This document shows positions 12,195 to 60,038 of a stretch of 64,000 bases of DNA, piece after piece (positions within the stretch are counted from its first letter, which is position 1; each line of letters opens with the position of its first letter). The notes beneath the pieces are model-generated. The model made no database searches. It was not told the origin of the DNA and worked only from the letters and a program-made list of their open reading frames with translations. Where the stretch lies: assembly GCA_036268955.1 (NCBI GenBank), contig DATATE010000089.1:1-64000 (forward strand), read 5' to 3'. This DNA is from Pseudonocardiaceae bacterium (GTDB taxonomy: Bacteria > Actinomycetota > Actinomycetes > Mycobacteriales > Pseudonocardiaceae). The position numbers were made by a program, and so were the translations under genes.

Positions 12195-12856
12195 CGACCA
12201 GCGTGTTGATCGTAGACGACCAGACCATGGTGCGGGAGAGTTTTCGCGCGGTGCTGACCGCCCAGCCGGACATGGTGGTCGTCGGTGAGGCGGGCGACGG
12301 CGCGCAGGCCGTGCTGGCCGCCCGCGAACTGTGCCCCGACGTGATCCTGATGGATGTGCGGATGCCGGTGCTGGACGGGTTGGCGGCAACGGAGAAGCTG
12401 CTCGCCGACAGTCCCGGGGCCGAGGGGCCACGGGTGCTGATGCTGACCACCTTCGACATCGACGACTATGTCTATCGCGCGTTGCGTTGCGGGGCAAGCG
12501 GTTTCCTGCTCAAGGACGCGCCACTGGCCGATCTGGTCAACGCGGTCCGGGTGGTCGCCTCGGGCAACGCGTTGTTCGCGCCGTCGGTGACCCGGCGCCT
12601 CGTCGCCGAGTTCAGCCGGCACAATCCCGGCCGGCCCGCCCAACCGGAGCTGGCCGGGCTGACCGCCCGCGAGCGTGAGGTGCTCCGGTTGGTGGCCAAG
12701 GGTCTTTCCAACACCGAGATCGCGGCGACGTTGAGCATCGTCGAGCAGACCGCGAAGACCCATGTCAGCCGGGTGTTCGGCAAGCTCGGCCTGCGGGACC
12801 GGGCGCAGGCCGTTGTGCTCGCCTACGAAGCGGGACTTGTCGTCCCCGGCGAGTGA
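12191..12856 (+). CDS. LuxR/NarL-family response regulator
   Basis: REC domain ([11 protein letters not shown] ... [12 protein letters not shown]) plus a C-terminal LuxR HTH ([45 protein letters not shown]). Confidence 0.85.
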
Positions 12857-29852: not shown

Positions 29853-31031
29853 GTGCGCATCGGCCTGTTGACCCGCGAGTACCCGCCCGAGGTGTACGGG
29901 GGTGCCGGCGTCCATGTCGGTTCGCTCGTACCGCAGCTACGCGAACTCGTCGACGTGGACGTGCACTGCTTCGGCGCGCCGCGCACCGAGTTCGACGCGC
30001 ATGCCTACGCCCACCAGCCGGCCAACGGGATGGAACGGGCGAATCCGGCACTGTCCACGCTCTCGGTGGACCTGGCGATCACCGCCGCGCTGTCGGACGG
30101 CGGGGCGCCGCCGGACCTGGTCCACTCGCACACCTGGTACGCGAACATGGCCGGGCACCTGGCGAAACTGCTCTACGGCGTGCCGCACGTTGTCACCGCG
30201 CACTCACTGGAACCGCGCAGGCCGTGGAAGGCCGAGCAGCTCGGCGGCGGCTATCAGCTGTCCTCCTGGGTCGAGCGCACCGCCTACGAAGCGGCCGACG
30301 CGATCATCGCGGTGAGCAACGGCATGCGCGCCGATGTCCTGGACTGCTATCCCGCGCTGGCGCCCGAGCGGGTGCACGTGGTGCGCAACGGCATCGACAC
30401 CGCCGCCTACCACCCGGTCACCAGCAACGACGTGCTGCGCAAGCACGGCATCGACCCGACCAAACCGACGGTGGTGTTCGTCGGCCGGATCACCCGGCAG
30501 AAGGGCGTCGGCCACCTGATCGCGGCCGGCCGGGACATCGACGCCGACGCGCAGCTGGTGCTGTGCGCGGGCGCGCCGGACACCCCGGAGATCGCCGAGG
30601 AGACCAAGCTCGCGGTCGCCGAGCTGACCGCGCACCGGCCCGGCGTGTTCTGGATCCAGAAGATGCTGCAACCGGCCGAGGTCCGACAGCTGCTCAGCAA
30701 TGCGACGGTGTTCGTCTGCCCCTCGGTGTACGAACCGCTGGGCATCGTGAACCTTGAGGCGATGGCCTGCGGCACCGCGGTGGTCGCCTCCGATGTCGGC
30801 GGCATCCCGGAGGTCGTGCAACCGGGCGCGACCGGCCTGCTGGTGCACTACGACGAGCAGGATGCCTTCGCCTACCGCACCGGGCTGGCCGCCGCGATCA
30901 ACGAACTGGTCGGCGATCCGCAACGGGCCGCGGCGATGGGGACGGCAGGCCGGCAGCGGGCGATCGAGGAGTTCTCCTGGCGCACCGTCGCCGAGCAGAC
31001 CATCGCCGTCTACGAGTCGGTGCTCGGCTGA
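29853..31031 (+). CDS. glgA: GT4 glycogen synthase / alpha-maltose-1-phosphate synthase (GlgA/GlgM-like)
   Basis: [22 protein letters not shown] ... [20 protein letters not shown] is GT4 with the E-x7-E motif. Divergent from glgC, as in mycobacteria. Confidence 0.85.
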
Positions 31032-32413
31032 GCGGACTTCGCCGAAACGGCCTGCGGCAGGGCAACCGGGGCCAGATGGCGCAGGGCCAGCGCGATGCCG
31101 ATGACGAGGAGCACGAAGGCGCCGGTGTAGGCGGTAAGGCCCGACCAGCCGCTGCCGGTGAAGAACAGCCCGCCGACCGAGCCGCCGATGCTGGAGCCGA
31201 GGTAGTAGCAGAACAGGTAGACCGCAGAACCCTGCACACCGAGCCGGGCTGAGCGGGCGCTGACCCAGCCACTGGCGATCGCGTGGGCGGCGAAGAAACC
31301 GGCGGTCGTGATGACGAGACCGGTGATCACCAGTGCCAGGTCGGCCGGCAGCATCAGCGCGAGGCCGACCAGGGTGATCACCGCCATCACCCACAACAGC
31401 CGGGGCCTGCCGAACCGGTCGACCAGCCTGCCGGCGAACGCCGAAGCGAGACAACCGGCGAGATACACCACGAAAATCAGCCCGACAACGACCTCGGGCA
31501 GGTCGAAACCCGGTCCGAGCAAACGGAAACCGAGATAGTTGTACACGGTGACGAAACAGCCCATCAGCAGGAAGCCGGCCGCGTACAACCGCAGCAGACC
31601 GCTGTCGGCGAAGGCCTTGCCCACCGAGGCGGCCAATGGCCGCACCCGCAGTGGCCGCGCCACGAAATGCGCGGAGGGCAGGATGGAGAACCGGAAGATC
31701 AGCGCGCAGGCCAACGCGACGACGCCGACGACCCCCAGGGCCCACCGCCAGTTCGACACGTCGTCGACGAGACCGGCGAGCAGCCTGCCGATCATGCCGC
31801 CGATTCCGTTGCCAGCAACATAAAGCCCCATACCGAACCCGAGTGAACCGCGATGCAGCTCCTCGGCGAGATAGGACATCGCGACCGCCTGCAACCCGGC
31901 CAGGGCGAGCCCTTGCAGGCCACGGATCACCAGTAGCACCGTGAAGTTCGGGCTGAACGCGGCAAGCACCCCGAGGCCCGCAGCGGCGAACAGCGACACC
32001 GTCATCACCGGGGTTCTGCCGAGGGCCTCCGACAGCGCGGTGAGCGGGATGACGCCGACCGCGAGCGCCGCGGTGGACACCGAGACGACGAGGCTGGCCG
32101 TTGCCGGCGCGAGGTGGAACTGGGTGGCCAGCGACGGCAGCAGGGCCTGCACGCAGTACAGCGCGGTGAAGGTGGCGAGGCCCGCGGCGAACAGGGCGAG
32201 GGTGATCCGACGGAAACCGGGCGAGGACCGCTGGTGCCGATCGGCACCGGAGACCGCACCGGTGCCAGCACCGGAGACGGCACCGGAGACGGCACGGCGC
32301 TCGGCACCGGTTGCGTTGGCGGCTGCGCTATCGGCTCTGGCCCTGCGGGCGTGGATTCCAGCGGTCACCGGATCGACGCTAGGTAGCCGCATTTGATTCG
32401 TCCAATACACCAA
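31010..32413 (-). CDS. MFS transporter
   Basis: 12-TM profile. The N-terminus carries a short AVSGAGTGAVSGA repeat. The true start may be internal. Confidence 0.8.
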   Translation of the reverse strand: MVYWTNQMRLPSVDPVTAGIHARRARADSAAANATGAERRAVSGAVSGAGTGAVSGADRHQRSSPGFRRITLALFAAGLATFTALYCVQALLPSLATQFHLAPATASLVVSVSTAALAVGVIPLTALSEALGRTPVMTVSLFAAAGLGVLAAFSPNFTVLLVIRGLQGLALAGLQAVAMSYLAEELHRGSLGFGMGLYVAGNGIGGMIGRLLAGLVDDVSNWRWALGVVGVVALACALIFRFSILPSAHFVARPLRVRPLAASVGKAFADSGLLRLYAAGFLLMGCFVTVYNYLGFRLLGPGFDLPEVVVGLIFVVYLAGCLASAFAGRLVDRFGRPRLLWVMAVITLVGLALMLPADLALVITGLVITTAGFFAAHAIASGWVSARSARLGVQGSAVYLFCYYLGSSIGGSVGGLFFTGSGWSGLTAYTGAFVLLVIGIALALRHLAPVALPQAVSAKSAQPSTDS

Positions 32414-32486: not shown

Positions 32487-33431
32487 GTGACGAACCAGAC
32501 TGACGCGCTGAGGGCGCTGACCGACGCGCTGGCGCCCCGACTGGCCCTGCTGGTCGCGCTCGCCGAGGAACGCAACGTCACCCGCGCCGCGGCAAGGCTG
32601 GGCGTGCCGCAGCCGACGGTCAGCCGCTGGCTGGCCACGCTGGCCACCGAACTCGGCACCCCGGTGATCACAAGGGACGGCCGGGGCATCCGGTTGACGA
32701 GGGCGGGCGAGCACCTCGCCGAGGCGGCCGAGGAGGCGCTGGCCGCACTCGCGCTCGGCTACCGGCGGGCCGAGGCGGAGGCCGACCCGGAACGCGGCGA
32801 GGTGGTCCTCGCCTTCCTGCACACCATGGGCGAGCTGCGCATCCCCGAACTGCTGCGGGCCTTCCGCGCCGAACATCCCGCCGTGCGGTTCACTCTTGTG
32901 CAGGGTTCGAAGGAGGATGTGTTGGCACGCCTGCGTACCGGCTCGGTCGATCTGGCGCTGACCTCACCGCCACCGGAGGGCCCCGAGTTCACCGCGATCG
33001 AACTCGACCGGCAGGAACTGGTCGTCACGGTGCCCAGCGGGCATCGACTTGCCGGCCGTGGCCGGATCAGGATCGCCGAACTGGCCAAGGAGCAGTTCGT
33101 CGGGATGAAGGCCGGTTTCGGACTGCGGCAGCTCACCGACGAACTGTGCGCGGCGGCCGGTTTCACGCCCCGGCATGCCTTCGAGGGCGAGGAGGTCGAC
33201 ACCGTGCGCGGTCTGGTGGCCGCCGGTCTCGGCGTTGCGATCCTGCCCTCGGCCGAGTGGGTGCTGCCGCCGAACGTCGTCGAATTGTCGTTGCGCCCCA
33301 AGGCAGGGCGCGGCATCGGGCTGGCCTGGATCACCGACCGGCCACTGACCCCGGCGGTACTGTCCTTCCGGGACTTCGCACTGCGCAAGGCAATGCGCCC
33401 GATCCGACAGCCGACAACGCCCCGGACATAG
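32487..33431 (+). CDS. LysR-family transcriptional regulator
   Basis: N-terminal HTH (LALLVALAEERNVTRAAARLGVPQPTVSRWLATLA) plus a LysR substrate-binding domain. Divergent from the MFS gene with a 74-nt gap. Confidence 0.85.
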   Translation: MTNQTDALRALTDALAPRLALLVALAEERNVTRAAARLGVPQPTVSRWLATLATELGTPVITRDGRGIRLTRAGEHLAEAAEEALAALALGYRRAEAEADPERGEVVLAFLHTMGELRIPELLRAFRAEHPAVRFTLVQGSKEDVLARLRTGSVDLALTSPPPEGPEFTAIELDRQELVVTVPSGHRLAGRGRIRIAELAKEQFVGMKAGFGLRQLTDELCAAAGFTPRHAFEGEEVDTVRGLVAAGLGVAILPSAEWVLPPNVVELSLRPKAGRGIGLAWITDRPLTPAVLSFRDFALRKAMRPIRQPTTPRT

Positions 33432-33486: not shown

Positions 33487-34650
33487 TCAGGAACGCAGCT
33501 TGCTCGCGGTGGAACGCCACTGCACCGTCGGGCGCATCGCGGCGAGGTCGACCCGGCTCGCGTTCTCCTGTGCGAGCCGGAACATCGACTGGATCAGCGT
33601 ATCCGACAGCAGGTGCGGCTCAAGACCCAGCGCCGGCAGGCCGGTGTGCACCACGTTGTAGTAGTGCGAGACCTCTTCCACCCGAGGGTTGGTCAGGTTC
33701 TCGACCTCGACCGGGCGCGGCGAGAGGTTCGCGACCGTCTTGGCGATCTCCGCGACCGACATCCACTCGGTGATCTGGTTGAACACCCGGAACTCGCCGC
33801 GCTCGGCCGGATTCTCGACGGCCAGCCGGATGCACTCCGCGGTGTCCCGAATGTCGATCATGCCTCGAGTCTGTCCGCCCGCGCCGTACACGGTCAGCGG
33901 GTGGCCGAGCACGGCCTGGATGACGAACCGGTTGAGCACGGTGCCGAAGATGGCGTCGTAGTCGAACCGGGTGGCCAGCCGAGGGTCACGCAGCGTCTGC
34001 GGGGTCTCCTGGCCGTAGACGACGCCCTGGTTGAGGTCGGTCGCCCGCAGGCCCCAGATCCGGCAGCTGAACTCCATGTTGTGCGAGTCGTGCACCTTGC
34101 TGAGGTGGTAGAACGAGCCGGGCTTCTTCGGGTAGAGCATCCGGTCCTTGCGACCGTTGTGCTCGACCTCCAGCCAGCCCTCCTCGATGTCGATGTTCGG
34201 CGTCCCGTACTCACCCATCGTGCCCAGCTTGACCAGGTGGATGTCCGGGTTGATCTCAGCGATCGCGAACAGCAGGTTCAGCGTGCCGACGACATTGTTC
34301 TGCTGCGTGTACACCGCATGCTTGCGGTCGATCATGGAATACGGCGCCGAACGCTGTTCGGCGAAATGCACGATCGAGTCGGGCTGGAATTCACGAAGTG
34401 TTGCGTTGACGAATTCGGCATCGCACAGATCACCGACATAAGAGGGCAGTCGCTTGCCGGATACCTCGGCCCAGGCATCGAGCCGGACCTGCAAAGGCTC
34501 GATCGGGACCAGGCTCTGCACGCCCATTTCGTGGTCGTAGGAACGACGAGCGAAATTGTCCAGTACGGCCACCTCGTGACCGGCGTCGGACAAGTGCAGT
34601 GCCGTCGGCCAGCCGAGATAGCCGTCGCCACCGAGTACGAGGACGCGCAC
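33487..34650 (-). CDS. sqdB: UDP-sulfoquinovose synthase (SQD1/SqdB family)
   Basis: Colinear, high identity to SQD1/SqdB as recalled from memory. Shared blocks are VLVLGGDGY.GWPTALHLS, EQRSAPYSMIDR..AVYTQ.NNV.GTLN.LFAI, HLVKLGTMGEYGTPNIDIEEG, SFYHLSKVHDSHN, WGLRATDLNQGVVYG, FRVFNQ.TE.SV.E.A and NPRVE...HYYN. Length is 387 aa. Confidence 0.8.
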   Translation of the reverse strand: MRVLVLGGDGYLGWPTALHLSDAGHEVAVLDNFARRSYDHEMGVQSLVPIEPLQVRLDAWAEVSGKRLPSYVGDLCDAEFVNATLREFQPDSIVHFAEQRSAPYSMIDRKHAVYTQQNNVVGTLNLLFAIAEINPDIHLVKLGTMGEYGTPNIDIEEGWLEVEHNGRKDRMLYPKKPGSFYHLSKVHDSHNMEFSCRIWGLRATDLNQGVVYGQETPQTLRDPRLATRFDYDAIFGTVLNRFVIQAVLGHPLTVYGAGGQTRGMIDIRDTAECIRLAVENPAERGEFRVFNQITEWMSVAEIAKTVANLSPRPVEVENLTNPRVEEVSHYYNVVHTGLPALGLEPHLLSDTLIQSMFRLAQENASRVDLAAMRPTVQWRSTASKLRS

Positions 34651-34791
34651 GGGAAACCCCTTCCAAGATTTCTTCTCAACGTTGCGGAACGTACCGTCGC
34701 GTTCCGTGTCTACCTTATGGACGAAGCTGTGAGTTGACTAAAGACCTGGTCCTGCGCTCGCTATCGCACAGTCATCGGGGAGGATGGCAAC

Positions 34792-35325
34792 GTGGTGAGC
34801 ACTGACATCTACCCATCCTCCGCCCGCACGTCCGCTACTGCCGGTGAGGCCGAATCGCCTCGTCGCCGCCGCTGGCTACCCAGCAGGCGACTGATAGCCA
34901 GGCTAAGCCAGTTCGCGGTCGGCTCGGTAGTCTCAACGGTTGTCAGTCAGGCCACCCTGACCGCCATGTACCTGTGGCTGCACACCAACGCCACCGAGGC
35001 CGCCGTCGCCGCGTTCATCGCCGGCGCGATTCCGGCGTTCCTCATCAACTGGCACTGGACCTGGTCCCGCCGTGGTCGTCCCGCCATGTTCAGCGAACTG
35101 CTGCCCTACCTGATGATCACCTTCGGCGGTGGCATCGCGGCGACCGGGCTGACGACGCTGGCCGACAAGGTCATCAACCCGCTGCTGACCAGCCGAGGCG
35201 AGCGCAGCCTGGTTCTCGACTGCGCCTACCTCGGCAGTTACGGCCTGCTGGTGCTGGTCAAGTTCGCGCTGCTTGATCGGCTGATGGCGCGCCGGCGGAC
35301 ACCATCGGCCGAAGCCGCCGCGTGA
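34792..35325 (+). CDS. GtrA-family membrane protein (polyprenyl-P-sugar flippase-like)
   Basis: Small 4-TM protein with the GtrA-like N-terminal segment (LSQFAVGSVVSTVVSQATLTAMYLWL). Its 3' end overlaps the convergent GT gene by about 67 nt, so one end may be over-extended. Confidence 0.6.
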   Translation: MVSTDIYPSSARTSATAGEAESPRRRRWLPSRRLIARLSQFAVGSVVSTVVSQATLTAMYLWLHTNATEAAVAAFIAGAIPAFLINWHWTWSRRGRPAMFSELLPYLMITFGGGIAATGLTTLADKVINPLLTSRGERSLVLDCAYLGSYGLLVLVKFALLDRLMARRRTPSAEAAA

Positions 35326-37678
35326 GCCGACCGACCACGAACTCCCTGACCCAGGTCCTGGTCATCACCTTGCTGTAGTTCATGCCGTAGACGAAGTTGT
35401 TGCCCTTCTTCGTCGTACCGGCCGAACGCACCCGCATGGTCATCGGCAGCTCCAGCAGCCGCGCACCACCCGCGAGAGCGCTGATCAGCAGCTCGGAGGC
35501 CTGGTACTGGGGCTGGCGCAGCTCGACCGAGCAGGCCAGCGAGGTACGCATGCCGCGGAAACCGAACGAGGTGTCGGTGATCCGCCGTGCGGTCAGGATG
35601 CTGGCCAGCGTCGCGAACACCCGCACTCCGAGCCAGCGCACCCGATCGTCGCCAGGGGCGACCCCGAGCCGACGCGAACCGGTGGTGAAGTCCGCCTCGT
35701 CGTCGATCAGCGGCCGCAGCAGCATCGGCATCTCGGCGTTGCAGTACTGGCCATCGGCATCGGTGGTGACCACGTACTCCGCGCCGCCGAGCGCGGCGAG
35801 CTGGTAGCCGAGGCGCAGTGCCGCACCCTGACCCCGGTTCGCCGGTGCGACACAGGTATAGGCGCCGTGTTCGGCCGCGACCGTCGCGGTGTCATCGCTG
35901 CACCCGTCGATCACCACCAACACGTCGACCGGTAGCCCACAACACTCCTTGGGGAGGTCGTCGAGCACCCCGCCGATACCGCCCTCCTCGTTGTAGGCGG
36001 CGATCACCACCAGCACTGGCGCGAAGTCCGGAGCACCGTAGCGATCAGTGAAGTCAGTCATCGCCGACCAGTCCGCCTGGTCGGGGAATGCCGACAACAT
36101 CGAACGGCGAGACTTCGCAGCCGGCCGCTTCAATGGTCCCATCAGGACAGTCATCCCGAGCACACCTCCTAGCGGCAGCAAGACTAAGCCAGGAAGCTGA
36201 TATCTCCATGAGAACTCGAACATGGCCGACGCGAACAAGATGACGAGGCCAAATCCCGTGGTCAACAGCGTCATGGCACGGATTCCACTGCGGCGCCTGC
36301 CAAAGCCGAACCCGCCAATCAACCCCAAAAGGGCGAAGATCGCCTGTAGCGGGCCGGGCGTGTAGCCGCCGTCGAGCTGGTAGGCCCGCAACACCGCGGC
36401 CAGATCGTTGTGCACGCTCGGCGGTACCCCGCCGTAGTACATCGCGATGTTCCAGACGGAAGACTCATCAAGCGACCAAAGCGGATAAAACGTCTGAAAC
36501 TGCCAGCGCTGTACCGGTACATCGCCGGGGCTGGTGGTCCGGCCGGGTTCGAAGCCCTTGGCGAAGTCGCCGAGGACCGCCTTGGCCACGGCTCCCGGCT
36601 GAGCCTCGATGACCTGGATGGCGAACTGGCGTTGCAGTTCCTCGACCGTCTTGCCCAGGGGTACGAAAGCCGGGAAACCGGGGTCGCCGATCAGGTGCGC
36701 GTACCAGTCGACGCCCTTGCGGGCGGTCAACGGCTCCGTCGGACACAGCTGTTGCAGGGACGGTGGCAGGTGCAGCGCGGGGCAGTCGGCGACGTTCGCG
36801 GTCCGGCCGTACAGCACCCCGGACGAGGCGCCGTCAAGGCCCCATTCGCCGGTCTCCCGGTGGAAGTAGCCGGCGTAGCAGAACAGCACCAGCCCGAAGC
36901 AGGACAGCATGGCCACCGAGCGGACCGCGATGATCCGCCTGCCCTCCCTACCGCGCCACACGCCGCCCGCGATGATCAGGTAGCCCAGCAGCGGCAGCAC
37001 GAGTGGGATGGCGATGGTGCGCATGATCGCCGCGAGGCCCAGCAGCAACCCGGCCGCACCGGCCCGTTTCGGGGTCGGTGCCCCTCGGGCGGCCAGCACC
37101 CAGACCACGGCCACCAGCAGCAGCTGTAGCCAGACATCGGACATCACGTTCTGCTCGATCTGCACCTGATAGGCGTCCAGCAGCACCGGTACGGCCGCGA
37201 TCGCGGCCAGCCAGCGACGCGCCCCGTAGCGCAGCGCGAGGGCGTAGACGGCGCAACCGAGCAGCAGCCCGGCCAGATGCTGTACCCCGGTCACCGTGCG
37301 CAGGCCGCCGAAGGGCAGCAGCACCCGCAGCACGAGGTCGTAGCCGATCGGGTCGAGCTGCGAGGGGTCCAGCGCGATCAGGTTCGCCAGGTAGCGGAAG
37401 GAGTCGAGGTAGAGGATCGCCGGCTGATACGCGATGAACGCGAACATCCGCAGCACCGCGCCGGCCGCCAGCACGACAAGGAAGACCCAGTGCTCCCGCG
37501 CGAACGCCGGCCGCGTTCGCGGAGCCGGCCGTTGCCGACCCTGCTCCTCCACAAGGCCCGGCTCGTCCACCGGGCCCTGGCCGTCGTCGGATCCCGGCCC
37601 GCCAGATCCTGGCCCGTCGACGCCGGCTGCCGCACTTGCGACGTCGACCACCAGTTGGTCGTCGACGTCGCCGTTCAC
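35258..37678 (-). CDS. Fusion protein: N-terminal polytopic membrane glycosyltransferase-like domain plus C-terminal GT2 domain (polyprenyl-phosphate sugar synthase-like)
   Basis: There is no stop between the about 500-aa multi-TM N-terminal part and the C-terminal GT2 part (VLVVIAAYNEEGGIGGVLDDLP ... VLVVIDGCSDDT ... VVTTDADGQY with a DxD). The GTG start overlaps the stop of the upstream epimerase gene (GTGA). Confidence 0.6.
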   Translation of the reverse strand: MNGDVDDQLVVDVASAAAGVDGPGSGGPGSDDGQGPVDEPGLVEEQGRQRPAPRTRPAFAREHWVFLVVLAAGAVLRMFAFIAYQPAILYLDSFRYLANLIALDPSQLDPIGYDLVLRVLLPFGGLRTVTGVQHLAGLLLGCAVYALALRYGARRWLAAIAAVPVLLDAYQVQIEQNVMSDVWLQLLLVAVVWVLAARGAPTPKRAGAAGLLLGLAAIMRTIAIPLVLPLLGYLIIAGGVWRGREGRRIIAVRSVAMLSCFGLVLFCYAGYFHRETGEWGLDGASSGVLYGRTANVADCPALHLPPSLQQLCPTEPLTARKGVDWYAHLIGDPGFPAFVPLGKTVEELQRQFAIQVIEAQPGAVAKAVLGDFAKGFEPGRTTSPGDVPVQRWQFQTFYPLWSLDESSVWNIAMYYGGVPPSVHNDLAAVLRAYQLDGGYTPGPLQAIFALLGLIGGFGFGRRRSGIRAMTLLTTGFGLVILFASAMFEFSWRYQLPGLVLLPLGGVLGMTVLMGPLKRPAAKSRRSMLSAFPDQADWSAMTDFTDRYGAPDFAPVLVVIAAYNEEGGIGGVLDDLPKECCGLPVDVLVVIDGCSDDTATVAAEHGAYTCVAPANRGQGAALRLGYQLAALGGAEYVVTTDADGQYCNAEMPMLLRPLIDDEADFTTGSRRLGVAPGDDRVRWLGVRVFATLASILTARRITDTSFGFRGMRTSLACSVELRQPQYQASELLISALAGGARLLELPMTMRVRSAGTTKKGNNFVYGMNYSKVMTRTWVREFVVGRLTRRLRPMVSAGAPSADQAART

Positions 37679-38682
37679 CGAAGGGGACCAGAAGCCGCCA
37701 GGTCCCCGGCGTCGGCCACCTCGGTCGCCGCGGCGGCAGCGGCGGTGAAGTCCGCCCACACCGTGCGCAGGCCGTCGGTGAGCGAGTAGCTCGGCTCGTA
37801 GCCGAGTTCCGCGCGGGCCCTGCTGATGTCCACGATCACCGCCGGCATCTCGCCGGTCTTGGCCGGAATGTGCTCGACCGGGATCGGCGCGCCGGTGGCC
37901 TCGCGGGCCGCGGCGATCAGGTCGAGCACGCTGACCGACCTGCCGCCGCCGATGATCGCGGTGCCGGTGAACTCGCGCTGCCAGGCCGCGGTGATGCCGG
38001 CGACGATGTCCTGCACGTGGACCAGGTCGCGGACCTGCTTGCCGTCGCCGTAGACCTGCACGCCGGTGCCGGCAAGCGCGGCGCGCATCAGCCGCGGCAC
38101 GAAGCTGTCCTTGGCCTCCATACCGGGGCCGTAGATGTTGGTGAACCGCAGCGCCGTCGTGGTCAGCCCGTACGCGCCGGCATAGCCGGACAACAACATC
38201 TCGCAGGCGGCCTTCGTCGCCCCGTACGGAGTCAGCGGGCGCAACGGGATGTCCTCGGTGATGGTCGCCGTGCCCACGTTGCCGACCACCGCGTTCGTCG
38301 AACCGAGGATGAACCGGTTGATGCCGCGCAGCCGGGCCAGTTCCAGCAGGCCCTGGGTGACCTCGACGTTCATGGTGAACGTCTCGGCGGGCTGCTCGGC
38401 GGAGCGCAGCACCGAGGTGATCGCGGCCAGGTGCACGACCCCGGTGACGTCAGGGGTCATCGCGGCCTCGCGCAGCTCGGGGCTGGTCAGGTCGCCGACG
38501 ACACTGCGCACCGCGTCATCGGGGAAGGGCCGCTGGTCGACAACGGTGATCTCGGCGCCGAGCCGGCGAAACTCCGCGACGACGGCCCTGCCGACGAAGC
38601 CGCAGCCACCGGTCACCAGCACTCGCGCTCCGGCGCAGGGCCGATCCTGTTCGTCAGTTCTGTCCACGGTTGTTCTCCACAT
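37675..38682 (-). CDS. NAD-dependent epimerase/dehydratase (UDP-sugar 4-epimerase-like)
   Basis: VLVTGGCGFVGRAVV Rossmann motif, the YGATK catalytic YxxxK, ATG at MWRTTVD. Confidence 0.8.
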   Translation of the reverse strand: MWRTTVDRTDEQDRPCAGARVLVTGGCGFVGRAVVAEFRRLGAEITVVDQRPFPDDAVRSVVGDLTSPELREAAMTPDVTGVVHLAAITSVLRSAEQPAETFTMNVEVTQGLLELARLRGINRFILGSTNAVVGNVGTATITEDIPLRPLTPYGATKAACEMLLSGYAGAYGLTTTALRFTNIYGPGMEAKDSFVPRLMRAALAGTGVQVYGDGKQVRDLVHVQDIVAGITAAWQREFTGTAIIGGGRSVSVLDLIAAAREATGAPIPVEHIPAKTGEMPAVIVDISRARAELGYEPSYSLTDGLRTVWADFTAAAAAATEVADAGDLAASGPLR

Positions 38683-38714: not shown

Positions 38715-40268
38715 CTACCCGGCGACGGATTCGGCCAGTGCGACGAGGGTGCGTGCGGCGAATCCGCTGGCCCCGGCGGTCACCTCGGCGTACGCGGCGT
38801 CGGCGCGAGCCGGACCGGCGATGTCGAGGTGCGCCCAGGGCAGGCCCGCGGTGAACTCGCGCAGGAACAGCGCGGCGTGGATCGAGCTGGGATGCGGCCC
38901 CCGGCCCATCTGCCGGGCGTCGGCGATGTCGCTGGTGATGTCCTCGACGGCGCTGTCCAACAGCGGCATCCGCCACCAGGCCTCGCCGACCGCGGCACCG
39001 GCCGCGCTGACCTGCGCGGCGAGTTCGTCGGTGCTGGCGAACAGCCCGCCGGTGCGCACCCCGAGGGTCACCTTCATCGCGCCGGTCAGGGTGGCCACGT
39101 CGACCAGCACGTCGGCCTTGAGCGCTCGGACCGCGTAGGCAAGACCGTCGGCGAGCACCATCCGCCCCTCGGCGTCGGTGTTGAGCACCTCGGTGGTCCG
39201 GCCGCCGTAGTGCCGCACCACGTCGCCGGGCCGGTAGGACGAACCGGACACGTGGTTCTCCGCGGCCGGAACGAGGCCGGTGACCCGGATCGGCAGCTGT
39301 AGTTCTGCGATGGCGCGCAGGGCCGCGATGACCGCGCCACCGCCGGCCATGTCGGTGCGCATCAGCTGCATACCGGGACCGCGCTTGAGGGAAAGGCCGC
39401 CGGTGTCGAAGGTGATGCCCTTGCCGACGATCACCAGATGCGGCCCTTTCGCGCCGCGCGGACGCCAGGCCAGCTCGATCAGTCGTGGCGGGCGGGACGA
39501 ACCGCCGCCGACGGCGAGCATGCCGCCGAAGCGCTGCTCGGTCAGCCAGTGTTCGTCCCGGACGGTCACGGCCAGCCCGGTCACCGCGCCGCCGACCTTG
39601 CTCGCGATGTCGGCCAGCCAGGCCGGGTCCTTCAGATCGGAGGGAGCGTTGGCAAGGTCGCGGGTGAGCGCGGTGGCCGAGGCGAGCACCGTCGCGCGCT
39701 GGAGGGCGGCCCGCAACGGTTCGCTCGGCTCGGCGATGTGCAGCCGGACGGTACGCACCTTGGGCTTGGCGGCCTGCTCGGTGACCCGGAACCGGTAGCC
39801 GCCCAGCAACAGGCCGAGTACGAGCGCCTCCAGTTCCTCGGCGGTGATCTCGGTCGGCAGCGAGAACTCGACGACCCGCTGCGCGGCGCTCGCCTCGGCG
39901 CTCAGCGCCTCGTCGGCGGCCCTGGCCAGCACCGCGCCTGCGGTCCGCCAGTCGACAGGGCGCCGCGCGCCGACCCCGACCAGCCAGGACCGGGCCGCGC
40001 TGCGCGAGACCGCGCCGGCCGGTACCGGATGCAGCTCGCCGGCCTTACCGGTCAGCTCAGCGGGCGGCTGCCAGTCACCGAGCAGGGCCTCGGCGCCCGG
40101 ACCTAACCAGACCTCGTCGGCCGATTCGCGCTCCCCGGCGTCCTCGGTGGCCTCGGCCGGTGCGATCACCGCGGCGCGCAGCGTGCCGCGCCTGGCGAGA
40201 TCACTCAACTCGACGCGGGCCAGTGGGGTGGGCACCACCGGAGCGATCGACGTACGCGCTGGCAACAC
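38715..40268 (-). CDS. pepA: Leucyl aminopeptidase (M17)
   Basis: M17 catalytic-domain signatures VGKGITFDTGG, NTDAEGRMVLAD and the N-terminal domain. Length 517 aa. Confidence 0.85.
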   Translation of the reverse strand: MLPARTSIAPVVPTPLARVELSDLARRGTLRAAVIAPAEATEDAGERESADEVWLGPGAEALLGDWQPPAELTGKAGELHPVPAGAVSRSAARSWLVGVGARRPVDWRTAGAVLARAADEALSAEASAAQRVVEFSLPTEITAEELEALVLGLLLGGYRFRVTEQAAKPKVRTVRLHIAEPSEPLRAALQRATVLASATALTRDLANAPSDLKDPAWLADIASKVGGAVTGLAVTVRDEHWLTEQRFGGMLAVGGGSSRPPRLIELAWRPRGAKGPHLVIVGKGITFDTGGLSLKRGPGMQLMRTDMAGGGAVIAALRAIAELQLPIRVTGLVPAAENHVSGSSYRPGDVVRHYGGRTTEVLNTDAEGRMVLADGLAYAVRALKADVLVDVATLTGAMKVTLGVRTGGLFASTDELAAQVSAAGAAVGEAWWRMPLLDSAVEDITSDIADARQMGRGPHPSSIHAALFLREFTAGLPWAHLDIAGPARADAAYAEVTAGASGFAARTLVALAESVAG

Positions 40269-42904: not shown

Positions 42905-43870
42905 TCAGAACCGCCTACGGGCGGCGAGCACCTCGCGCATCGGTGGCCGGTCGCTGATCAGCACGTCCGTCGCGTCCGGCAGCCACTCCCCGTCGACCTG
43001 CACGAACTGGACGAACGCCGCGGCCGGATCACCGACCTCGCCGACCTCACCGACCTCATCGGCCGGGAGGCCACAGCGGGCCAGCGCGGTGCCCAGGATC
43101 TGCCGGCTCATCACGCCCAACTGCAGCAGTGACCGGTTGCGGTGCTTGCGCACCCCGAGGTTGACCTGCGCCAAACCGGCAAGGCCGTAGCGGTCGTGCG
43201 CGTCGAGCAGCAGCCCGATCTCGACCCCGTAGCCTGCGGCGAAGGGCACCGACTCGGCAAAACAACGGCTCACCGCGTACTCCCCGCCCAGCGGCTGGAT
43301 GATCCCGGCCAACTCGGGTCGAAGCGCCGCCAACAACGGTCTGGCCAACAGTTCGGTGACCCGGCCACCGCCGGTACCGACCTCGGCGCTCTCCAACCGC
43401 AGCGGCCGCCGATAGAAGCCCTTCACCAGATGCACCTGCGGATCACACAGCGCCGGCCCGAGCAGCGCGGTGACGAAACCGGGGTCGGGGTCGATCAGGT
43501 CGGAGTCGAGGAAGACCAGCACCTCACCGCTGGTCGCGGCGAGCGAGCGCCACAGCACCTCACCCTTGCCGGGCAACGGCTCCCAGTCCGCCAGCACCTC
43601 AGACCTGCGCACCACCCGCGCCCCGGCCGCCCGCGCCACCGCCACCGTGTCGTCGGTCGAGCCGGAGTCCAGCACCAGGCATTCGTCCACAAGGGACCCC
43701 AGTAGCGGCAGCACCGACCCGACCACGCCGGCCACCGTCGCCTGCTCGTTCAGCGCCGGCAGCACAACGCTGACCGTGCGGGAACCCTTGGCTTCCACCA
43801 GTTCTTCGACGCTCCACTGTGGAGTCTGCCAGGTTCGCCGGGCGAACCAGTCGCTGCTCGCCGGCCGCAT
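42905..43870 (-). CDS. gpgS: Glucosyl-3-phosphoglycerate synthase (GT81/GT2-like)
   Basis: VSVVLPALNEQATV ... VLDSGSTDDT ... VFLDSDL matches the GpgS family retaining GT. Synteny with tag and DUF3117 matches mycobacteria. Confidence 0.75.
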   Translation of the reverse strand: MRPASSDWFARRTWQTPQWSVEELVEAKGSRTVSVVLPALNEQATVAGVVGSVLPLLGSLVDECLVLDSGSTDDTVAVARAAGARVVRRSEVLADWEPLPGKGEVLWRSLAATSGEVLVFLDSDLIDPDPGFVTALLGPALCDPQVHLVKGFYRRPLRLESAEVGTGGGRVTELLARPLLAALRPELAGIIQPLGGEYAVSRCFAESVPFAAGYGVEIGLLLDAHDRYGLAGLAQVNLGVRKHRNRSLLQLGVMSRQILGTALARCGLPADEVGEVGEVGDPAAAFVQFVQVDGEWLPDATDVLISDRPPMREVLAARRRF

Positions 43871-46129: not shown

Positions 46130-46300
46130 GGAGAAACGTTTATTTAACAGTCATATTTTGTTTAAAAAATGTCAACTGTGAATATTCAACAATAGACATG
46201 ATCTGTTAACTGCGCATTTACGTATATTCACGACGCATTCGTTGATGATGTCGATTTTACTGGGTATAAAAAATTTACCCTGTCATCGACGGAAAGCGAC
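46130..46300. promoter_or_regulatory. Strongly AT-rich tract (atypical for this about 70% GC DNA) with inverted repeats, upstream of the phospholipase D gene
   Basis: tttatttaacagtcatattttgtttaaaaaatgtcaactgtgaatattcaacaatagacatgatctgttaactgcgcatttacgtatattcacg. Contains ttaacag/ctgttaa inverted repeats, a tataaaaaa stretch, and gtcaactg. Confidence 0.4.
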
Positions 46301-46307
46301 CACTCGA

Positions 46308-47315
46308 ATGAAAAAGCACCATTTACTTGTCGTGCCCGCCGTACTGAGCATGATCGTCGCAGGCGCCGCCGTCACCACCGCCGACGCCGCTCCCACCGCC
46401 CACCAGGCGCCGGCCGCGACGTACACCCTGATCACCGAGCCGGACCAGACCTACACCCCGGTGTACAACTTCATCGGCACGGCAACCAAGACCCTCGACA
46501 TGACCATGTACGAACTGGTCGACACCACCGCCGAGCAGGATCTCGTCGCCGCCGCCAAGAAAGGCGTGAAGGTCAGGGTCATTCTGGACCAGAACCTGGA
46601 GAAGTCCTCCAACACCACCGCCTACAACTACCTCAACGCGAACGGCGTTTCGACCGTGTGGGCCAAGGCGGGTCGCACCACCCACCAGAAGACGATCACC
46701 GTCGACGGCACCTCATCGATGATCATGACGGGCAACCTGACCTCACGGTACTACTCGACCACCAGGGACTTCGCGGTCATCGACACCAACTCGCTGGACG
46801 TGAACGCGATCGAGAAGGTGTTCAACGCCGACTACGCCGACACCGCGATCACCCCGACCGACGGCGACAACCTGGTCTGGAGCCCCACCGACTCGCAGAC
46901 CCAACTGGTGGCCCTGATCAACTCCGCCACCACCTCGCTGAACGTCGAGAACGAGGAGATGAGCGACACCGCGATCGTCAGCGCGCTGGAGAGCGCCGCG
47001 AAGAAGGGTGTTGACGTCCAGATCACCATGACCAACACCGACAACGACTACGCCTCCGAGTTCGACGCGCTGACCAGCGCGGGCGCGCACGTCGCCACCT
47101 ACACCGGCGAGACCCCGATCTACATCCACGCCAAGGCGATCGTCGCCGACGCCGGCAAGTCCGACGCAACGGTCTACGTCGGCTCGGAGAACTTCTCCAA
47201 CGCCTCACTGACCGAGAACCGCGAACTGGGCATCATCACCACCAACGCCACCCTGCTGTCCTCGGTGAACTCGACTCTCACCTCGGACTTCAACGGCGCC
47301 AGCCCCTGGTCGTAA
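46308..47315 (+). CDS. Secreted phospholipase D-family (two HKD motifs) protein
   Basis: Signal peptide MKKHHLLVVPAVLSMIVAGAAVTTADA. HKD motifs TTHQKTITVDG and IYIHAKAIVADAG. A Thr/Ser/Asn-rich composition unlike neighbouring proteins. Confidence 0.8.
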   Translation: MKKHHLLVVPAVLSMIVAGAAVTTADAAPTAHQAPAATYTLITEPDQTYTPVYNFIGTATKTLDMTMYELVDTTAEQDLVAAAKKGVKVRVILDQNLEKSSNTTAYNYLNANGVSTVWAKAGRTTHQKTITVDGTSSMIMTGNLTSRYYSTTRDFAVIDTNSLDVNAIEKVFNADYADTAITPTDGDNLVWSPTDSQTQLVALINSATTSLNVENEEMSDTAIVSALESAAKKGVDVQITMTNTDNDYASEFDALTSAGAHVATYTGETPIYIHAKAIVADAGKSDATVYVGSENFSNASLTENRELGIITTNATLLSSVNSTLTSDFNGASPWS

Positions 47316-50770: not shown

Positions 50771-52816
50771 TCAGCCGGTGACACTGTCCGCGCCATATTC
50801 CAGGTGCCCGACGAAGCGACGCAGGAAGGTCGCCTCCCCGTCCACCGTCGCCGACACGTCGTACCAACCCTGGCCGGTGGCAACGACATCGAGGTCCTCG
50901 GTCAACGTCGCACCGGCCGCAACGCGCACCGTACCGGCCGCGCCGAGCTGGCCCTGGCCACGCAACCGGACCGTGGCGGGTGCCGAACCGCCGTTGCTGA
51001 TCGACAGCCGCAGGCGCGGATGGCTGGTACTGCCCACCACCGTCGCGGCGACCTCGACGCCGAGCCCGGCGCCGGTGCCGTTGAACACCCGCAGGAACCG
51101 GTTGGGGCCGTGCACCGCGATCTGGTAGCCGCCGCTGATCGGCAGGGCCACCGCCTCGCTGCCGCCCGCCGGCACGTGCTGCCGTACCGGTGCCGAACCG
51201 GTCGGGTACACCTGCAACTGCACGGCGGCAGCACCGGAGTTGGCCATCAGCACTGTCAGCGTGCCGGCGCTGACCTGCGCGTTGGCCACCGGCTGGTACG
51301 GGATCGGCCGGGCGGGCCGGTCACCCGGCTCCTGCTGTGGGTCGCGCTGCGCGCCCTCGGCGGGTGGGGTCGGCGTCGGCAGCTTCGACTGCGTGCTGTC
51401 CGCCTCCCGCTGCAACGCGGCGGTGTCCGGCAGCAGCGGAATGCCGGGGTTCCACGCGGAGAAGTCGAAGCAGCTGGTCAGGTCGCCGCAGATGGACCGG
51501 CGCCAGGCCGAGATGTTCGGCTCCCGCACCCCGGTCCACTGTTCGAGGAAGCGGATCACCGAGGTGTGGTCGAAGACCTGCGAGTTCACCCAACCACCCC
51601 GGCTCCACGGCGAGATCACCGTCATCGGCACCCGAGGCCCGAGGCCGATCGGCAGGCCGTCGACGTACTCGTCCTCGGTGCCGGCCGGCGCGGTGGGCGG
51701 CACGACGTGGTCGAAGAAGCCGTCGTTCTCATCGAAGTTGGCGAACACGACCGTGTTGTCCCACAGCTTCTCGTTGCCCCACAAGGCTTTCAGTACGGTG
51801 TTCACGTACACCGCGCCGTCGACCGGCCGCGCCGCCGGGTGCTCGCACCAGCGGTAGGGCGCCACGATCCAGGACACCTTCGGCAGGTTCCCGGCCTTGC
51901 AGGCGCCGATGAAGTCGGCGAGCACATGCTCGGGGTCCATGCCGAGGCCGGAGTCGGGCAGCCATTCCTTGATCACGTTGGCCCGCGCGGCCAGCTGCTG
52001 CTGCGCAGGGTCCGAGCTGGCCAGCGCGTCGTGGTAGGCCTTGAACAGCCACAGCGGGTTGTCGCCGTAGTCACCGACCCAACCGTCGGTGCCGTCGCCG
52101 ACCTCCTTGTTGGCGAAGATCTGCCAGGAGATCCCGGCATCCTGCAGCCGCTCGGGGTAGGTCGGCCAGGACAGCACGGGCAGGTAGTCCGCGGGGTTGT
52201 AGTTGATCGGGCCGCCGAAGCGGCCGGCCGCGTCGATCGTGCCGGTCCAGTGGTAGAGCCGGTTGGGCGTCGTCGGTCCCTGGATCGAACAGAAGTAGTG
52301 GTCGCAGATGGTGAACGCGCTCGACAGCGCCCGCTGGAACGGGATGTCGGCATCGGTGAAGTAGCCCATGGTCAGCTCGGACTTGTTCGGAATCCAGGCG
52401 TCGTAGGCGCCGTCGTCCCAGGCGTTGTGCGTCGGCTGCCAGCTGTGGTCGAGGTCACCGAGATCCTGACCGTCCACTTTGGTGGTGTCGACGTGGAAGG
52501 GCAGCAGGTAGCCGCCGTCGGTCCGCGTGGCGTCCGGCTGGTGGAAGACGCTTCTGCCGGTCGGCAGGTTGATCGCGGTCGTGTCACCGAAGCCGCGAAC
52601 CCCGCGCATCGAGCCGAAGTAGTGGTCGAAGGAGCGGTTCTCCTGCATCAGGATGACCACGTGCTCGACGTCATCCAGCTTGCCCCGCTTGCGCGGCTGG
52701 GTGAGGGCCTCGGCCATCCCGCTCGGCAACCCACTGAGCACACTGCCCGCCGCGGCCGCACCGGCGACACCACCGATGAACCGACGACGATTGAAACCCG
52801 AACCCGACTCGACCAT
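50771..52816 (-). CDS. Tat-exported phosphoesterase-family phospholipase C (non-haemolytic PLC/acid phosphatase family) with C-terminal DUF756-like repeats
   Basis: Twin-arginine signal MVESGSGFNRRRFIGGVAGAAAAGSVLSG. The phosphoesterase core VVILMQENRSFDHYFG. About 680 aa, with two C-terminal beta domains. Confidence 0.8.
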   Translation of the reverse strand: MVESGSGFNRRRFIGGVAGAAAAGSVLSGLPSGMAEALTQPRKRGKLDDVEHVVILMQENRSFDHYFGSMRGVRGFGDTTAINLPTGRSVFHQPDATRTDGGYLLPFHVDTTKVDGQDLGDLDHSWQPTHNAWDDGAYDAWIPNKSELTMGYFTDADIPFQRALSSAFTICDHYFCSIQGPTTPNRLYHWTGTIDAAGRFGGPINYNPADYLPVLSWPTYPERLQDAGISWQIFANKEVGDGTDGWVGDYGDNPLWLFKAYHDALASSDPAQQQLAARANVIKEWLPDSGLGMDPEHVLADFIGACKAGNLPKVSWIVAPYRWCEHPAARPVDGAVYVNTVLKALWGNEKLWDNTVVFANFDENDGFFDHVVPPTAPAGTEDEYVDGLPIGLGPRVPMTVISPWSRGGWVNSQVFDHTSVIRFLEQWTGVREPNISAWRRSICGDLTSCFDFSAWNPGIPLLPDTAALQREADSTQSKLPTPTPPAEGAQRDPQQEPGDRPARPIPYQPVANAQVSAGTLTVLMANSGAAAVQLQVYPTGSAPVRQHVPAGGSEAVALPISGGYQIAVHGPNRFLRVFNGTGAGLGVEVAATVVGSTSHPRLRLSISNGGSAPATVRLRGQGQLGAAGTVRVAAGATLTEDLDVVATGQGWYDVSATVDGEATFLRRFVGHLEYGADSVTG

Positions 52817-52958
52817 GTTGACTGGCCCCTTCCGCTGGACAACGCCGAGTGGAGCCAAACAGCAGAAGGCGAATGCCGCCACGCTTGACTGTTAACGTGA
52901 GGTAGCCATTACCAAGCGCGGATATGGCGTGAAGTTTCCCTGGTCTCCCCGCCCGCCC

Positions 52959-59892: not shown

Positions 59893-60038
59893 ACCTTGCG
59901 GGGCGGCCGGCGATCTCGCAATGGTTGCTTCGCTGCAATCAGGTAAATCTGGCCGGGATCAGCCAGGAGCCGGGCCGGGCAGACCTGGCCGGTTTCCGTC
60001 AATCGGGATATTCCGCCAGGTCGACCTATGATGTCGTG

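Follow-up and report, generated by a model that had tools for sequence, protein, structure and literature searches.

A UDP-sulfoquinovose synthase gene linked to a conserved, candidate polyprenyl-phosphate glycosylation cassette in actinomycetes

Introduction

Why does a Pseudonocardiaceae bacterium encode a UDP-sulfoquinovose synthase (SqdB) beside genes of a candidate glycosylation system of the cell envelope? To our knowledge, sulfoquinovose is attributed to phototrophs, which make it as SQDG, and beyond that it is known to be used only in archaeal N-glycans. The initial annotation of the stretch of DNA analysed here (the window; 64,000 nucleotides of contig DATATE010000089.1) proposed a three-component, Gtr-like system acting together with SqdB and supposed it to be undescribed in Actinobacteria. 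The literature search agrees with this supposition, as no description of a sulfoquinovose cassette was found; a bacterial counterpart of the archaeal sulfoquinovose N-glycans is likewise not reported in the literature searched. Two candidate precedents were rejected: the GtrA cluster of Actinoplanes (PMC13390465) is a different cluster without sqdB, and the ‘SQDG’ of M. smegmatis (PMC7393984) is no more than a putative assignment from metabolomics. The conserved cassette described below suggests that many actinomycetes carry a sulfonated surface decoration that has yet to be described.

Arrangement of the locus

All four genes named in the initial annotation are present at the coordinates given there and match the expected families, and their reading frames are supported by GC3 in DNA of 69% GC. 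The sqdB gene (33487–34650, minus strand) encodes a protein of 387 aa and is divided by a divergent intergenic region of 141 bp (34651–34791) from gtrA (34792–35325, plus strand), which encodes a small GtrA-family protein of 177 aa. The gene of a fused GT-C + GT2 glycosyltransferase (35258–37678, minus strand; 806 aa from a GTG at 37678) converges on gtrA with a 3′ overlap of 68 bp. The gene of an extended-SDR NDP-sugar 4-epimerase (37675–38682, minus strand; 335 aa) is coupled to the glycosyltransferase gene by a GTGA overlap at 37678–37675, as had been claimed, with the TGA at 37677–37675 and the GTG at 37678–37676; a 4-base overlap of these genes is also annotated in Saccharopolyspora, Kribbella and Amycolatopsis. 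sqdB is a transcription unit of its own, and gtrA, on the opposite strand, parts it from the epimerase–glycosyltransferase operon, which weighs against a single module.

The intergenic region between sqdB and gtrA presumably holds the promoters of both genes. A sigma-70 consensus scan of this region gave no match, and neither a consensus promoter nor a convincing terminator was seen; an Rfam search of the window for regulatory RNA returned no match. A palindrome, GGAACG-N8-CGTTCC, lies at 34686–34705 inside the region, and its conservation is not obvious in the upstream sequences of relatives that were compared. Motif comparison of the upstream sequences found words that recur within genera, none of them assignable.

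A LysR regulator (32487–33431, plus strand) and an MFS transporter (31010–32413, minus strand) do adjoin the cassette, as initially noted, but they were rejected as parts of the system, being shared only with the nearest relative (locus L006). Among named proteins, GltC and AlsR are the best relatives of the regulator, and CysB and Cbl are not. The initial annotation had also stated that no SQDG-type glycosyltransferase accompanies sqdB. This holds, with the qualification that a GT4 gene (29853–31031) is found 2.4 kb away; it was considered as a hidden SqdX and rejected, being GlgA (599 bits on TIGR02149, the model of actinobacterial glycogen synthase, with a cut-off of 302) paired with glgC.

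UDP-sulfoquinovose synthase

Judged by its sequence, SqdB is a full-length SQD1 orthologue. Its similarity to Arabidopsis SQD1 (1QRR) amounts to 528 bits (E 1e-157) with 58.4% identity, and residues 2–386 align to 3–390 of the plant enzyme, which bears out the colinearity with plant SQD1 suggested at the outset. Alignment to SQD1 indicates that H96, R101, T145, M146, Y182, H183 and K186 are all kept, including the catalytic T145, Y182 and K186 together with R101 and H183. The roles of the residues are taken from work on Agl3 (PMC4388408), where the residues found essential correspond to conserved residues of SqdB. The motifs GGDGYLG (the GxxGxxG NAD site), EQRSAPY, GTMGEYGTP and SFYHLSK are kept too. 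On the NCBIfam equivalog model NF041015 the protein reaches 463.9 bits, under the cut-off of 575; since the next-best family, GalE, reaches only 58 bits, this shortfall looks like subfamily distance and not like membership of another family.

GtrA, the fused glycosyltransferase and the epimerase

GtrA scores 37.6 bits on PF04138 (cut-off 26.1), and four hydrophobic segments are seen in its 177 aa, which fits the 3–4 TM helices of this family of small proteins. It is predicted to be a flippase and/or a membrane partner for a lipid-linked sugar.

The fused glycosyltransferase consists of an N-terminal GT-C-fold domain (residues about 57–513; 36140–37510, minus strand) and a GT2 domain (residues about 534–806; 35258–36079, minus strand). 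An identical protein in the NCBI annotation starts 42 codons later and has 764 aa; the GC pattern of these 42 codons (0.91/0.50/0.79) is coding-like. The GT2 family assignment is given by PF00535 (47.7 bits). The N-terminal domain reaches 21.4 bits on PMT_2, under the cut-off of 26.1, and neither phmmer nor a 12-sequence profile of this domain matched PDB sequences. Its GT-C membrane fold was seen in a fold search with the predicted structure, the one route to the family that gave a result. The AlphaFold2 model of the whole protein has a pLDDT of 83.1 and a pTM of 0.69; used as a Foldseek query, it gave GT2 matches only among the best 50. Homologues of the GT-C domain (P0352, P0355, P0283, P0306 and P0370) score 23.7–31.3 bits on PF02366, over its cut-off of 22.7.

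The predicted topology of the GT-C domain comprises 10 TM helices, both termini inside and a 169-aa outside loop, with all Arg/Lys-rich loops on the cytoplasmic side. Conserved acidic residues face outward in the model. One of them, D92, is invariant in 38 sequences and lies in the loop after TM1, predicted outside; this matches a trait of GT-C enzymes, in which the first loop on the extracytoplasmic side has a conserved acidic residue. An invariant Cys pair is also predicted outside. By its modelled fold, the domain is predicted to be an extracytoplasmic transferase. It belongs to a large family (2142 representatives at E≤1e-3), at least one member of which adjoins NeuB/NeuC/NeuA-type genes without sqdB (L086); thus, the family is not bound to sulfoquinovose.

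The GT2 domain has a GT-A fold with a DxD motif and is closest to DPMS, ArnC and GtrB. The top Foldseek match is ArnC (E 3.5e-8, identity about 20%); soluble GT2 enzymes such as GpgS likewise rank high. Scores on the equivalog models of PpgS, AglJ and dolichyl-P hexose transferase are 70–81 bits against cut-offs of 325–375, and on these sequence scores the domain is related to the named enzymes but orthologous to none of them. Fold and family point to a predicted cytoplasmic polyprenyl-phosphate sugar synthase.

The epimerase scores 175 bits on PF01370 and 148 bits on the GalE model, under the cut-off of 262, and contains YxxxK (YGATK) and GST motifs. Its best solved relative is MoeE5 (165 bits), which we take to be a UDP-glucuronate 4-epimerase and not a plain GalE; UDP-GlcNAc and UDP-Glc 4-epimerases follow.

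Conservation of the cassette

The neighbourhood of sqdB was compared in the 80 species genomes whose SqdB is closest; the comparison covered the loci around sqdB. A cassette glycosyltransferase adjoins sqdB in 75 of them (GT2 in 74, GT-C in one), in the form of a GT-C/GT2 fusion (47 genomes), a stand-alone GT2 (23), a split pair (1) or a locus cut by a contig end (4). gtrA adjoins sqdB in 68/80 genomes (tblastn), and the epimerase gene adjoins the glycosyltransferase gene in 65/80. The association is far beyond chance and is kept in 75/80 genomes, whose flanks are unrelated. The taxa involved represent at least four families and include Pseudonocardiaceae, Kribbella, Micromonosporaceae and Streptosporangiaceae. 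The flanking genes are genus-specific, such as cobalamin genes in Streptosporangiaceae, pepA and glgA in Pseudonocardiaceae, and GH92, FemAB and methyltransferase genes in Kribbella; no conserved extra gene that would name the acceptor was found across the loci of relatives. TauE, a sulfur-related protein, is encoded near the cassette in Saccharopolyspora.

The linkage persists through rearrangement (L061/L081/L085, L050, L067), fusion and splitting, and gene-neighbourhood conservation, one of the checks proposed for the initial reading, is thereby very strong. GT2, GtrA and GT-C occur together in 48/80 genomes, with pairwise fusions of several kinds: GT-C is fused to GT2, as in the window, or to GtrA (P0370, P0306), or is unfused (L036, L087, L088). 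In L091 the epimerase, a GT-C + GtrA fusion, GT2, a methyltransferase and SqdB are encoded side by side. In L090, a distant locus, sqdB overlaps the gene of a GT-C + GtrA fusion by 4 bases and is followed by the gene of a PAPS reductase, an enzyme that makes sulfite.

In 23/80 genomes the locus encodes no GT-C; therefore, the minimal core is GT2 + GtrA + SqdB. For the last transfer step, these 23 genomes may have a gene at another site, or the step may be lacking. Where GT2 stands alone in the Streptosporangiaceae loci, it has no TM helix. In 6 of the 23 loci GT2, GtrA and SqdB are kept without the epimerase, which is thus considered accessory. Two Pseudonocardia loci (L063, L083) have a different GT2/GT21-type enzyme beside sqdB instead. 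Beside sqdB, the 80 loci show no further recurrent glycosyltransferase family, GT4 (SqdX/SQD2) and GT8 (SqdD) included.

Proposed pathway and alternative explanations

On balance, the four genes probably constitute a module for placing sulfoquinovose, or a sugar closely derived from it, on an extracytoplasmic acceptor via a polyprenyl-phosphate carrier, the product and the acceptor being computational predictions. Sulfoquinovose is the best reading for the sugar carried by GT2, with gene linkage as its sole basis. By orthology, SqdB would convert UDP-glucose and sulfite into UDP-sulfoquinovose. The cytoplasmic GT2 domain would, from its fold and family, move the sugar onto polyprenyl phosphate. 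GtrA, by analogy, may help the lipid-linked sugar to cross the membrane, or else anchor and activate GT2, and the GT-C domain, if its predicted model is right, would transfer the sugar to an envelope glycan, a lipoglycan or a protein. The coupled 4-epimerase may supply UDP-glucose or may convert UDP-sulfoquinovose into its C4 epimer. The three-component logic recognised initially is upheld by the families and folds of GT2, GtrA and GT-C and by their co-inheritance with sqdB. A methyltransferase is added in some lineages.

A rather unlikely alternative is that GT2, GtrA and GT-C carry the sugar made by the epimerase (for example Gal, GalNAc or GalA) while UDP-sulfoquinovose goes to an unlinked enzyme, the genes being clustered because both sugars are put onto one glycoconjugate. 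The gene translationally coupled to the glycosyltransferase gene is indeed that of the epimerase and not sqdB, the nearest solved relatives of the epimerase are NDP-sugar 4-epimerases with UDP-GlcA, UDP-GlcNAc and UDP-Glc as substrates, and the mycobacterial analogue PpgS uses UDP-GalNAc, according to the account in PMC3485146. It is countered by the six epimerase-free loci, by L090, where it is sqdB that lies upstream of GT-C and is coupled to it, and by the loci in general, which hold no conserved second glycosyltransferase able to use UDP-sulfoquinovose.

The adjacency of GtrA, GT2 and GT-C would be functionally meaningless if SqdB served ordinary SQDG synthesis through a transferase of the SqdX/SQD2 or SqdD type encoded elsewhere. 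In every characterised bacterium and plant that we know of, SqdB is an SQDG-pathway enzyme; the transcript of sqdB is separate from the epimerase–glycosyltransferase operon, and the GT2/GT21-type partner in the two Pseudonocardia loci could be a lipid glycosyltransferase. This explanation appears quite improbable in view of adjacency in 75/80 species genomes of at least four families, in which the flanks are unrelated and more than one gene order occurs, of the translational coupling of sqdB to the GT-C + GtrA gene in L090, and of the lack of any GT4 or GT8 recurring near sqdB, the only GT4 of the window being GlgA. The chance that the SqdB-like enzyme performs another SDR nucleotide-sugar reaction, such as one of the 4,6-dehydratase type without sulfite, is very small. 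The score below the NF041015 cut-off and the fact that no actinobacterial member is known to have been assayed would allow it; the full colinearity with crystallised SQD1, the retention of all seven residues matching those essential in Agl3 (PMC4388408) and the sulfur-related neighbours in L090 and Saccharopolyspora argue against it.

If the module transfers sulfoquinovose, soil actinomycetes including Saccharopolyspora, Amycolatopsis, Kribbella, Actinomadura, Nonomuraea and Micromonosporaceae come into consideration as its users. More tentatively, with the balance a little short of even, many of them might make polyprenyl-phospho-sulfoquinovose and decorate a wall polymer, a lipoglycan or a glycoprotein with a permanently anionic, phosphate-free sugar. 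Where the epimerase or the methyltransferase is present, the sugar that is transferred may itself be novel, either 6-deoxy-6-sulfo-galactose or O-methyl-sulfoquinovose.

Comparison with known systems

Three-component systems of extracytoplasmic glycosylation are known from Shigella and Salmonella phages (GtrA/GtrB/GtrC) and from Bacillus and Listeria (CsbB/GtcA/YfhO and GtlA/GtlB), as described in PMC11127046, PMC8035078 and PMC7389260. By family and fold, the cassette shares with them a GT2, here predicted to charge polyprenyl phosphate, a 4-TM GtrA protein and a GT-C whose active site is predicted to face outward. It differs in the sugar predicted from gene linkage, which is sulfoquinovose and not glucose, GlcNAc, galactose or pentofuranose, in the inclusion of a dedicated nucleotide-sugar synthase, SqdB, with a 4-epimerase, and in the fusion of GT-C to GT2 or, in relatives, to GtrA. 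On computational grounds, the cassette is a novel form of three-component glycosylation. In M. tuberculosis, as related in PMC3485146 (citing Skovierova 2010), PpgS (Rv3631), Rv3632 and Rv3779 place galactosamine onto arabinogalactan via polyprenyl-P-GalNAc. This system resembles the cassette in being actinobacterial and in having a TM-less GT2 that is a polyprenyl-P sugar synthase there and a predicted one here, a small membrane partner and a GT-C-type transferase; unlike the cassette, it is described there with UDP-GalNAc as the donor, with unfused genes and with Rv3779 unlinked from ppgS. The GT2 of the cassette is not a PpgS orthologue (70 bits on the PpgS model, cut-off 370).

The first enzyme is the same as in the SQDG pathway (SQD1/SqdB with the GT4 SQD2/SqdX or the GT8 SqdD), but a polyprenyl-P-type GT2 and a GT-C are linked to it here and no SqdX/SQD2/SqdD-type transferase. 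ArnC, ArnE-F and ArnT modify lipid A with L-Ara4N, and actinomycetes have no lipid A. The sequence of steps in the Arn system is like the one proposed here: a modified UDP-sugar, a polyprenyl-P-sugar, a flip and a GT-C transfer. The sugars differ, however, a cationic amino-pentose in Arn versus an anionic sulfo-hexose here, and so do the type of flippase and the acceptor, which in Arn is lipid A; identity of about 20% implies no orthology. Sulfoquinovose-containing N-glycans are found in Sulfolobus acidocaldarius, which has Agl3 (PMC4388408), and in Halobacterium (PMC8674786). No other non-lipid glycoconjugate of a cell surface is known to be made with UDP-sulfoquinovose; unlike the product of the cassette, the archaeal glycan is built on dolichol before the oligosaccharyltransferase AglB transfers it, with no GtrA/GT2/GT-C cassette described for the sulfoquinovose step.

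If the proposed pathway is true, polyprenyl-phospho-sulfoquinovose would be a lipid-linked sulfo-sugar never reported before, a new member of the known lipid-linked sugar donors, and its product would be the first bacterial sulfoquinovose glycoconjugate besides SQDG. It would also define a new class of bacterial envelope modification, in which sulfonate replaces phosphate or carboxylate, and a non-photosynthetic source of sulfoquinovose in soil, of relevance to sulfoglycolysis and the sulfur cycle. The fusions of GT-C with GT2 and with GtrA represent unusually clean genetic evidence for three-component wiring and may be of use in glyco-engineering. Saccharopolyspora erythraea, a genetically tractable erythromycin producer in which the question is directly testable, has the cassette in the region of SACE_5690, its sqdB.

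Organisation of the sqdB locus

The window has a GC content of 69%, and true reading frames were chosen by third-position GC. The sqdB gene (33487–34650, minus strand) and gtrA (34792–35325, plus strand) are divergent, with an intergenic gap of 141 bp. This gap contains the palindrome GGAACG-N8-CGTTCC (34686–34705). Comparison of 220 bp upstream of sqdB showed that CATCTGATAGGCA recurs in Pseudonocardiaceae relatives and GATTCACAG...TTGCCAG in Kribbella and Amycolatopsis; the palindrome and these words may be promoter or operator elements. The gtrA gene lies between sqdB and the gene of an 806 aa fused membrane/GT2 protein (35258–37678, minus strand), with which it is convergent, the 3′ ends overlapping by 68 bp (35258–35325). 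An overlap of 71 bp is annotated in the Kribbella and Amycolatopsis loci (L003 and L005) and is absent in Saccharopolyspora erythraea. Next come genes for a 335 aa SDR epimerase (37675–38682) and the M17 aminopeptidase PepA (38715–40268), both on the minus strand. The coupling of the epimerase and GT genes, proposed in the initial annotation, is borne out: the GTGA at 37678–37675 holds both the stop codon of the epimerase gene and the start codon of the GT gene, and the same four-base overlap is annotated in three genera, Saccharopolyspora, Kribbella and Amycolatopsis. The start of the fused GT (37552–37678) is uncertain; NCBI annotation of an identical protein begins 42 codons downstream, giving 764 aa versus 806 aa from the GTG. 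In their GC pattern the disputed 42 codons resemble coding sequence, and residues 1–49 are of low complexity, with pLDDT below 50 in the model.

Properties of the encoded proteins

SqdB aligns end to end with Arabidopsis SQD1 (528 bits, 58.4% identity), in line with the colinearity first noted. The NAD motif, H96, R101, T145, M146, Y182, H183 and K186 are all kept, so that the catalytic residues T145, Y182, K186, H183 and R101 are present; the conserved residues include those essential in archaeal Agl3 (PMC4388408). The score on the NCBIfam SqdB equivalog model (464 bits) is below the cut-off (575 bits). Since no other family scores near, this is read as subfamily distance.

GtrA passes the Pfam threshold and has four hydrophobic segments. 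The fused protein, described initially as a polytopic membrane GT joined to a GT2, matches that description. Its N-terminal domain, in an AlphaFold2 model of the fused protein (pLDDT 83.1), has a fold matching the GT-C enzymes Pmt4 (20.5), GPI mannosyltransferase I (20.3) and AglB (19.1), as well as ALG12, ALG3, ArnT (18.0), AftB, AftA and PimE. The GT2 domain carries the motifs AAYNE and DAD; its nearest named families, dolichyl-phosphate hexose transferase, AglJ and PpgS, all score well under cut-off. Hydropathy and the positive-inside rule predict ten TM helices, the two termini and all Arg/Lys-rich loops being cytoplasmic. An invariant D92 is located in the first predicted outside loop, and an invariant Cys pair on a predicted outside loop of 169 residues. 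In this topology the domain that uses the UDP-sugar would be cytoplasmic, and the active site of the GT-C would lie outside; as predicted, it fits what a three-component system requires. As in 4-epimerases, GST and YxxxK motifs are present in the epimerase, and its top solved relative is MoeE5 (165 bits), followed by UDP-GlcNAc and UDP-Glc 4-epimerases. MoeE5 and the 6ZL6 protein are UDP-glucuronate 4-epimerases acting on a C6-anionic sugar, which offers a lead.

Conservation and fusion of the cassette

A scan with one genome per species gave at least 593 SqdB relatives, and the 80 best loci were examined with the window proteins as queries. All 80 are labelled Actinomycetota except one Melainabacteria bin. 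The fused GT-C/GT2 gene adjoins sqdB in 47 genomes (46 with the epimerase, 46 with gtrA), and a stand-alone GT2 of the same family in 23, mostly Streptosporangiaceae, Nonomuraea and Actinomadura; 17 of these have the epimerase and six lack it. A separate GT-C gene follows sqdB in one genome (Haloechinothrix, L036), contig ends cut the locus in four, and five have no cassette at sqdB. The minimal core is GT2, GtrA and SqdB. Genes flanking the cassette differ between genera and are unrelated, and gene order varies in L050, L061, L067, L081 and L085, which argues that the linkage is functional rather than inherited synteny. Conservation of the neighbourhood across actinomycetes is thus upheld for the cassette. 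The LysR (32487–33431) and MFS (31010–32413) genes, also reported next to the cluster, do lie beyond sqdB in the window, but this arrangement is common only to the Melainabacteria bin and not to the other 79 genomes. Among named proteins, the LysR protein is closest to GltC and AlsR rather than to CysB or Cbl, which regulate sulfur metabolism. That bin (L006, CAWACW010000017.1, 'Candidatus Melainabacteria') is the nearest genomic relative, with SqdB 89–90% identical and the same order, pepA-epimerase-GT-gtrA-sqdB-LysR-MFS; it is probably mis-binned or mislabelled, because the contig looks actinobacterial.

Two Pseudonocardia genomes lack the cassette beside sqdB. One (L063) has a 396 aa GT2/GT21-type glycosyltransferase (8619–9809) divergent from sqdB, and a methyltransferase; the other (L083) has a homologue 52% identical to this enzyme (7643–8647), about 2.7 kb downstream of sqdB. 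In these two genomes sulfoquinovose may serve a different purpose, perhaps one directed to lipids.

Searched exhaustively with HMMER, the GT-C domain gave 2142 cluster representatives, of which 549 reach E ≤ 1e-30. The best are mostly stand-alone proteins of about 500 aa, and several exceed the Pfam PMT threshold. In L087, pepA, epimerase, GT-C and GT2 are each a separate gene, and in L088 GT-C is followed by GT2. Proteins P0370 and P0306 are GT-C and GtrA fusions. Locus L091 has the order epimerase, GT-C+GtrA fusion, GT2, methyltransferase, sqdB; in L090, a distant metagenomic locus, sqdB overlaps the GT-C+GtrA gene by four bases. That these components occur in three fusion states, each with sqdB, is strong 'Rosetta-stone' evidence for their joint action. 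In L090 a sulfite-making PAPS/APS reductase (2944–3717) follows, a sulfur-supply neighbour. In S. erythraea (L001) the gene after sqdB encodes a permease of the TauE/SafE sulfite-exporter family (11803–12711), and ORFs of similar size occupy this place in three more Saccharopolyspora loci.

In eight loci (L016, L027, L030, L036, L061, L067, L081 and L085) the stretch from gtrA to sqdB includes a gene for a class I SAM methyltransferase, which is absent from the window and 65–73% identical across four families; that of L091 (4437–5207) has the GT2 gene on one side and sqdB on the other. This hints at an O-methylated sugar in the lineages bearing it. On a 7 kb Logan contig (SRR32638381, L086), a stand-alone GT-C homologue about 49–51% identical to the window's domain adjoins NeuB-, NeuC- and NeuA-type genes of nonulosonic acid synthesis, and neither sqdB nor GT2 is found on this contig. 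The GT-C family as such is thus not confined to sulfoquinovose and may also serve other acidic sugars.

Proposed function

SqdB would produce UDP-sulfoquinovose, from which GT2 would move the sugar onto polyprenyl phosphate. GtrA would flip the lipid-linked product or support the GT2, whose stand-alone version has no TM helix, and GT-C would pass the sugar to an acceptor outside. The epimerase may supply UDP-glucose or epimerise UDP-sulfoquinovose; it appears accessory, because six GT2-only loci are without it. The wall polymers of the host families are very different; no conserved neighbour naming the outside acceptor was found at the cassette loci. This mechanism is reasonably probable. The system rests wholly on computation: gene content, conservation, fusions, predicted-model folds and conserved motifs. 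The three-component Gtr logic first suggested agrees with the GT2, GtrA and GT-C fold, the fitting topology, the conserved linkage and the fusions; the gene cluster as first observed is confirmed, and all tests that could be run speak for its interpretation.

Plain sulfolipid (SQDG) synthesis by an unlinked transferase would leave the conserved linkage of sqdB and cassette unexplained and is improbable, while SQDG may be made alongside the cassette product. Possibly the carrier bears a different sugar and sulfoquinovose is attached by another enzyme, a reading that loses weight through the loci without the epimerase and through the coupling in L090 of GT-C to sqdB itself. The conserved catalytic residues speak against an SqdB-like enzyme with non-sulfoquinovose chemistry, which is unlikely.

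The proposed cassette would work in the same way as known three-component systems (PMC11127046, PMC8035078) and with the logic of ArnC/ArnT. It also resembles actinobacterial PpgS/Rv3632/Rv3779 (PMC3485146), where PpgS, partnered by Rv3632, is a TM-less GT2 like the stand-alone one here. It is not orthologous to any named member of these systems, profile scores being under cut-offs; its novelty lies in the sugar predicted, in an SqdB of its own and in the fusions. The view that such a system was undescribed in Actinobacteria accords with the open-access literature on sulfoquinovose with actinobacteria, prenyl carriers or GtrA, which yielded catabolism, plant and archaeal work only; actinobacterial SqdB homologues (SACE_5690, Mvan_5143 and PFREUD_00050) appear there simply as tree leaves (PMC4388408).

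Other genes of the window

The nearest database proteins belong to Pseudonocardiaceae metagenome bins. The rest of the window resembles ordinary actinobacterial core genes, including those for an ECF sigma factor, an HtrA-type protease, an Mrp-type ATPase, GlgC/GlgA, a methyladenine glycosylase and a further GT2. Envelope- or phosphate-related genes encode a GT87 family glycosyltransferase (PF09594, 12970–14313), another GT2 (PF00535 only, 42905–43870), a PLD-like/polyphosphate-kinase-C-domain protein (46242–47315), a phospholipase C (50771–52882) and a CHAD-domain protein (59886–61043).
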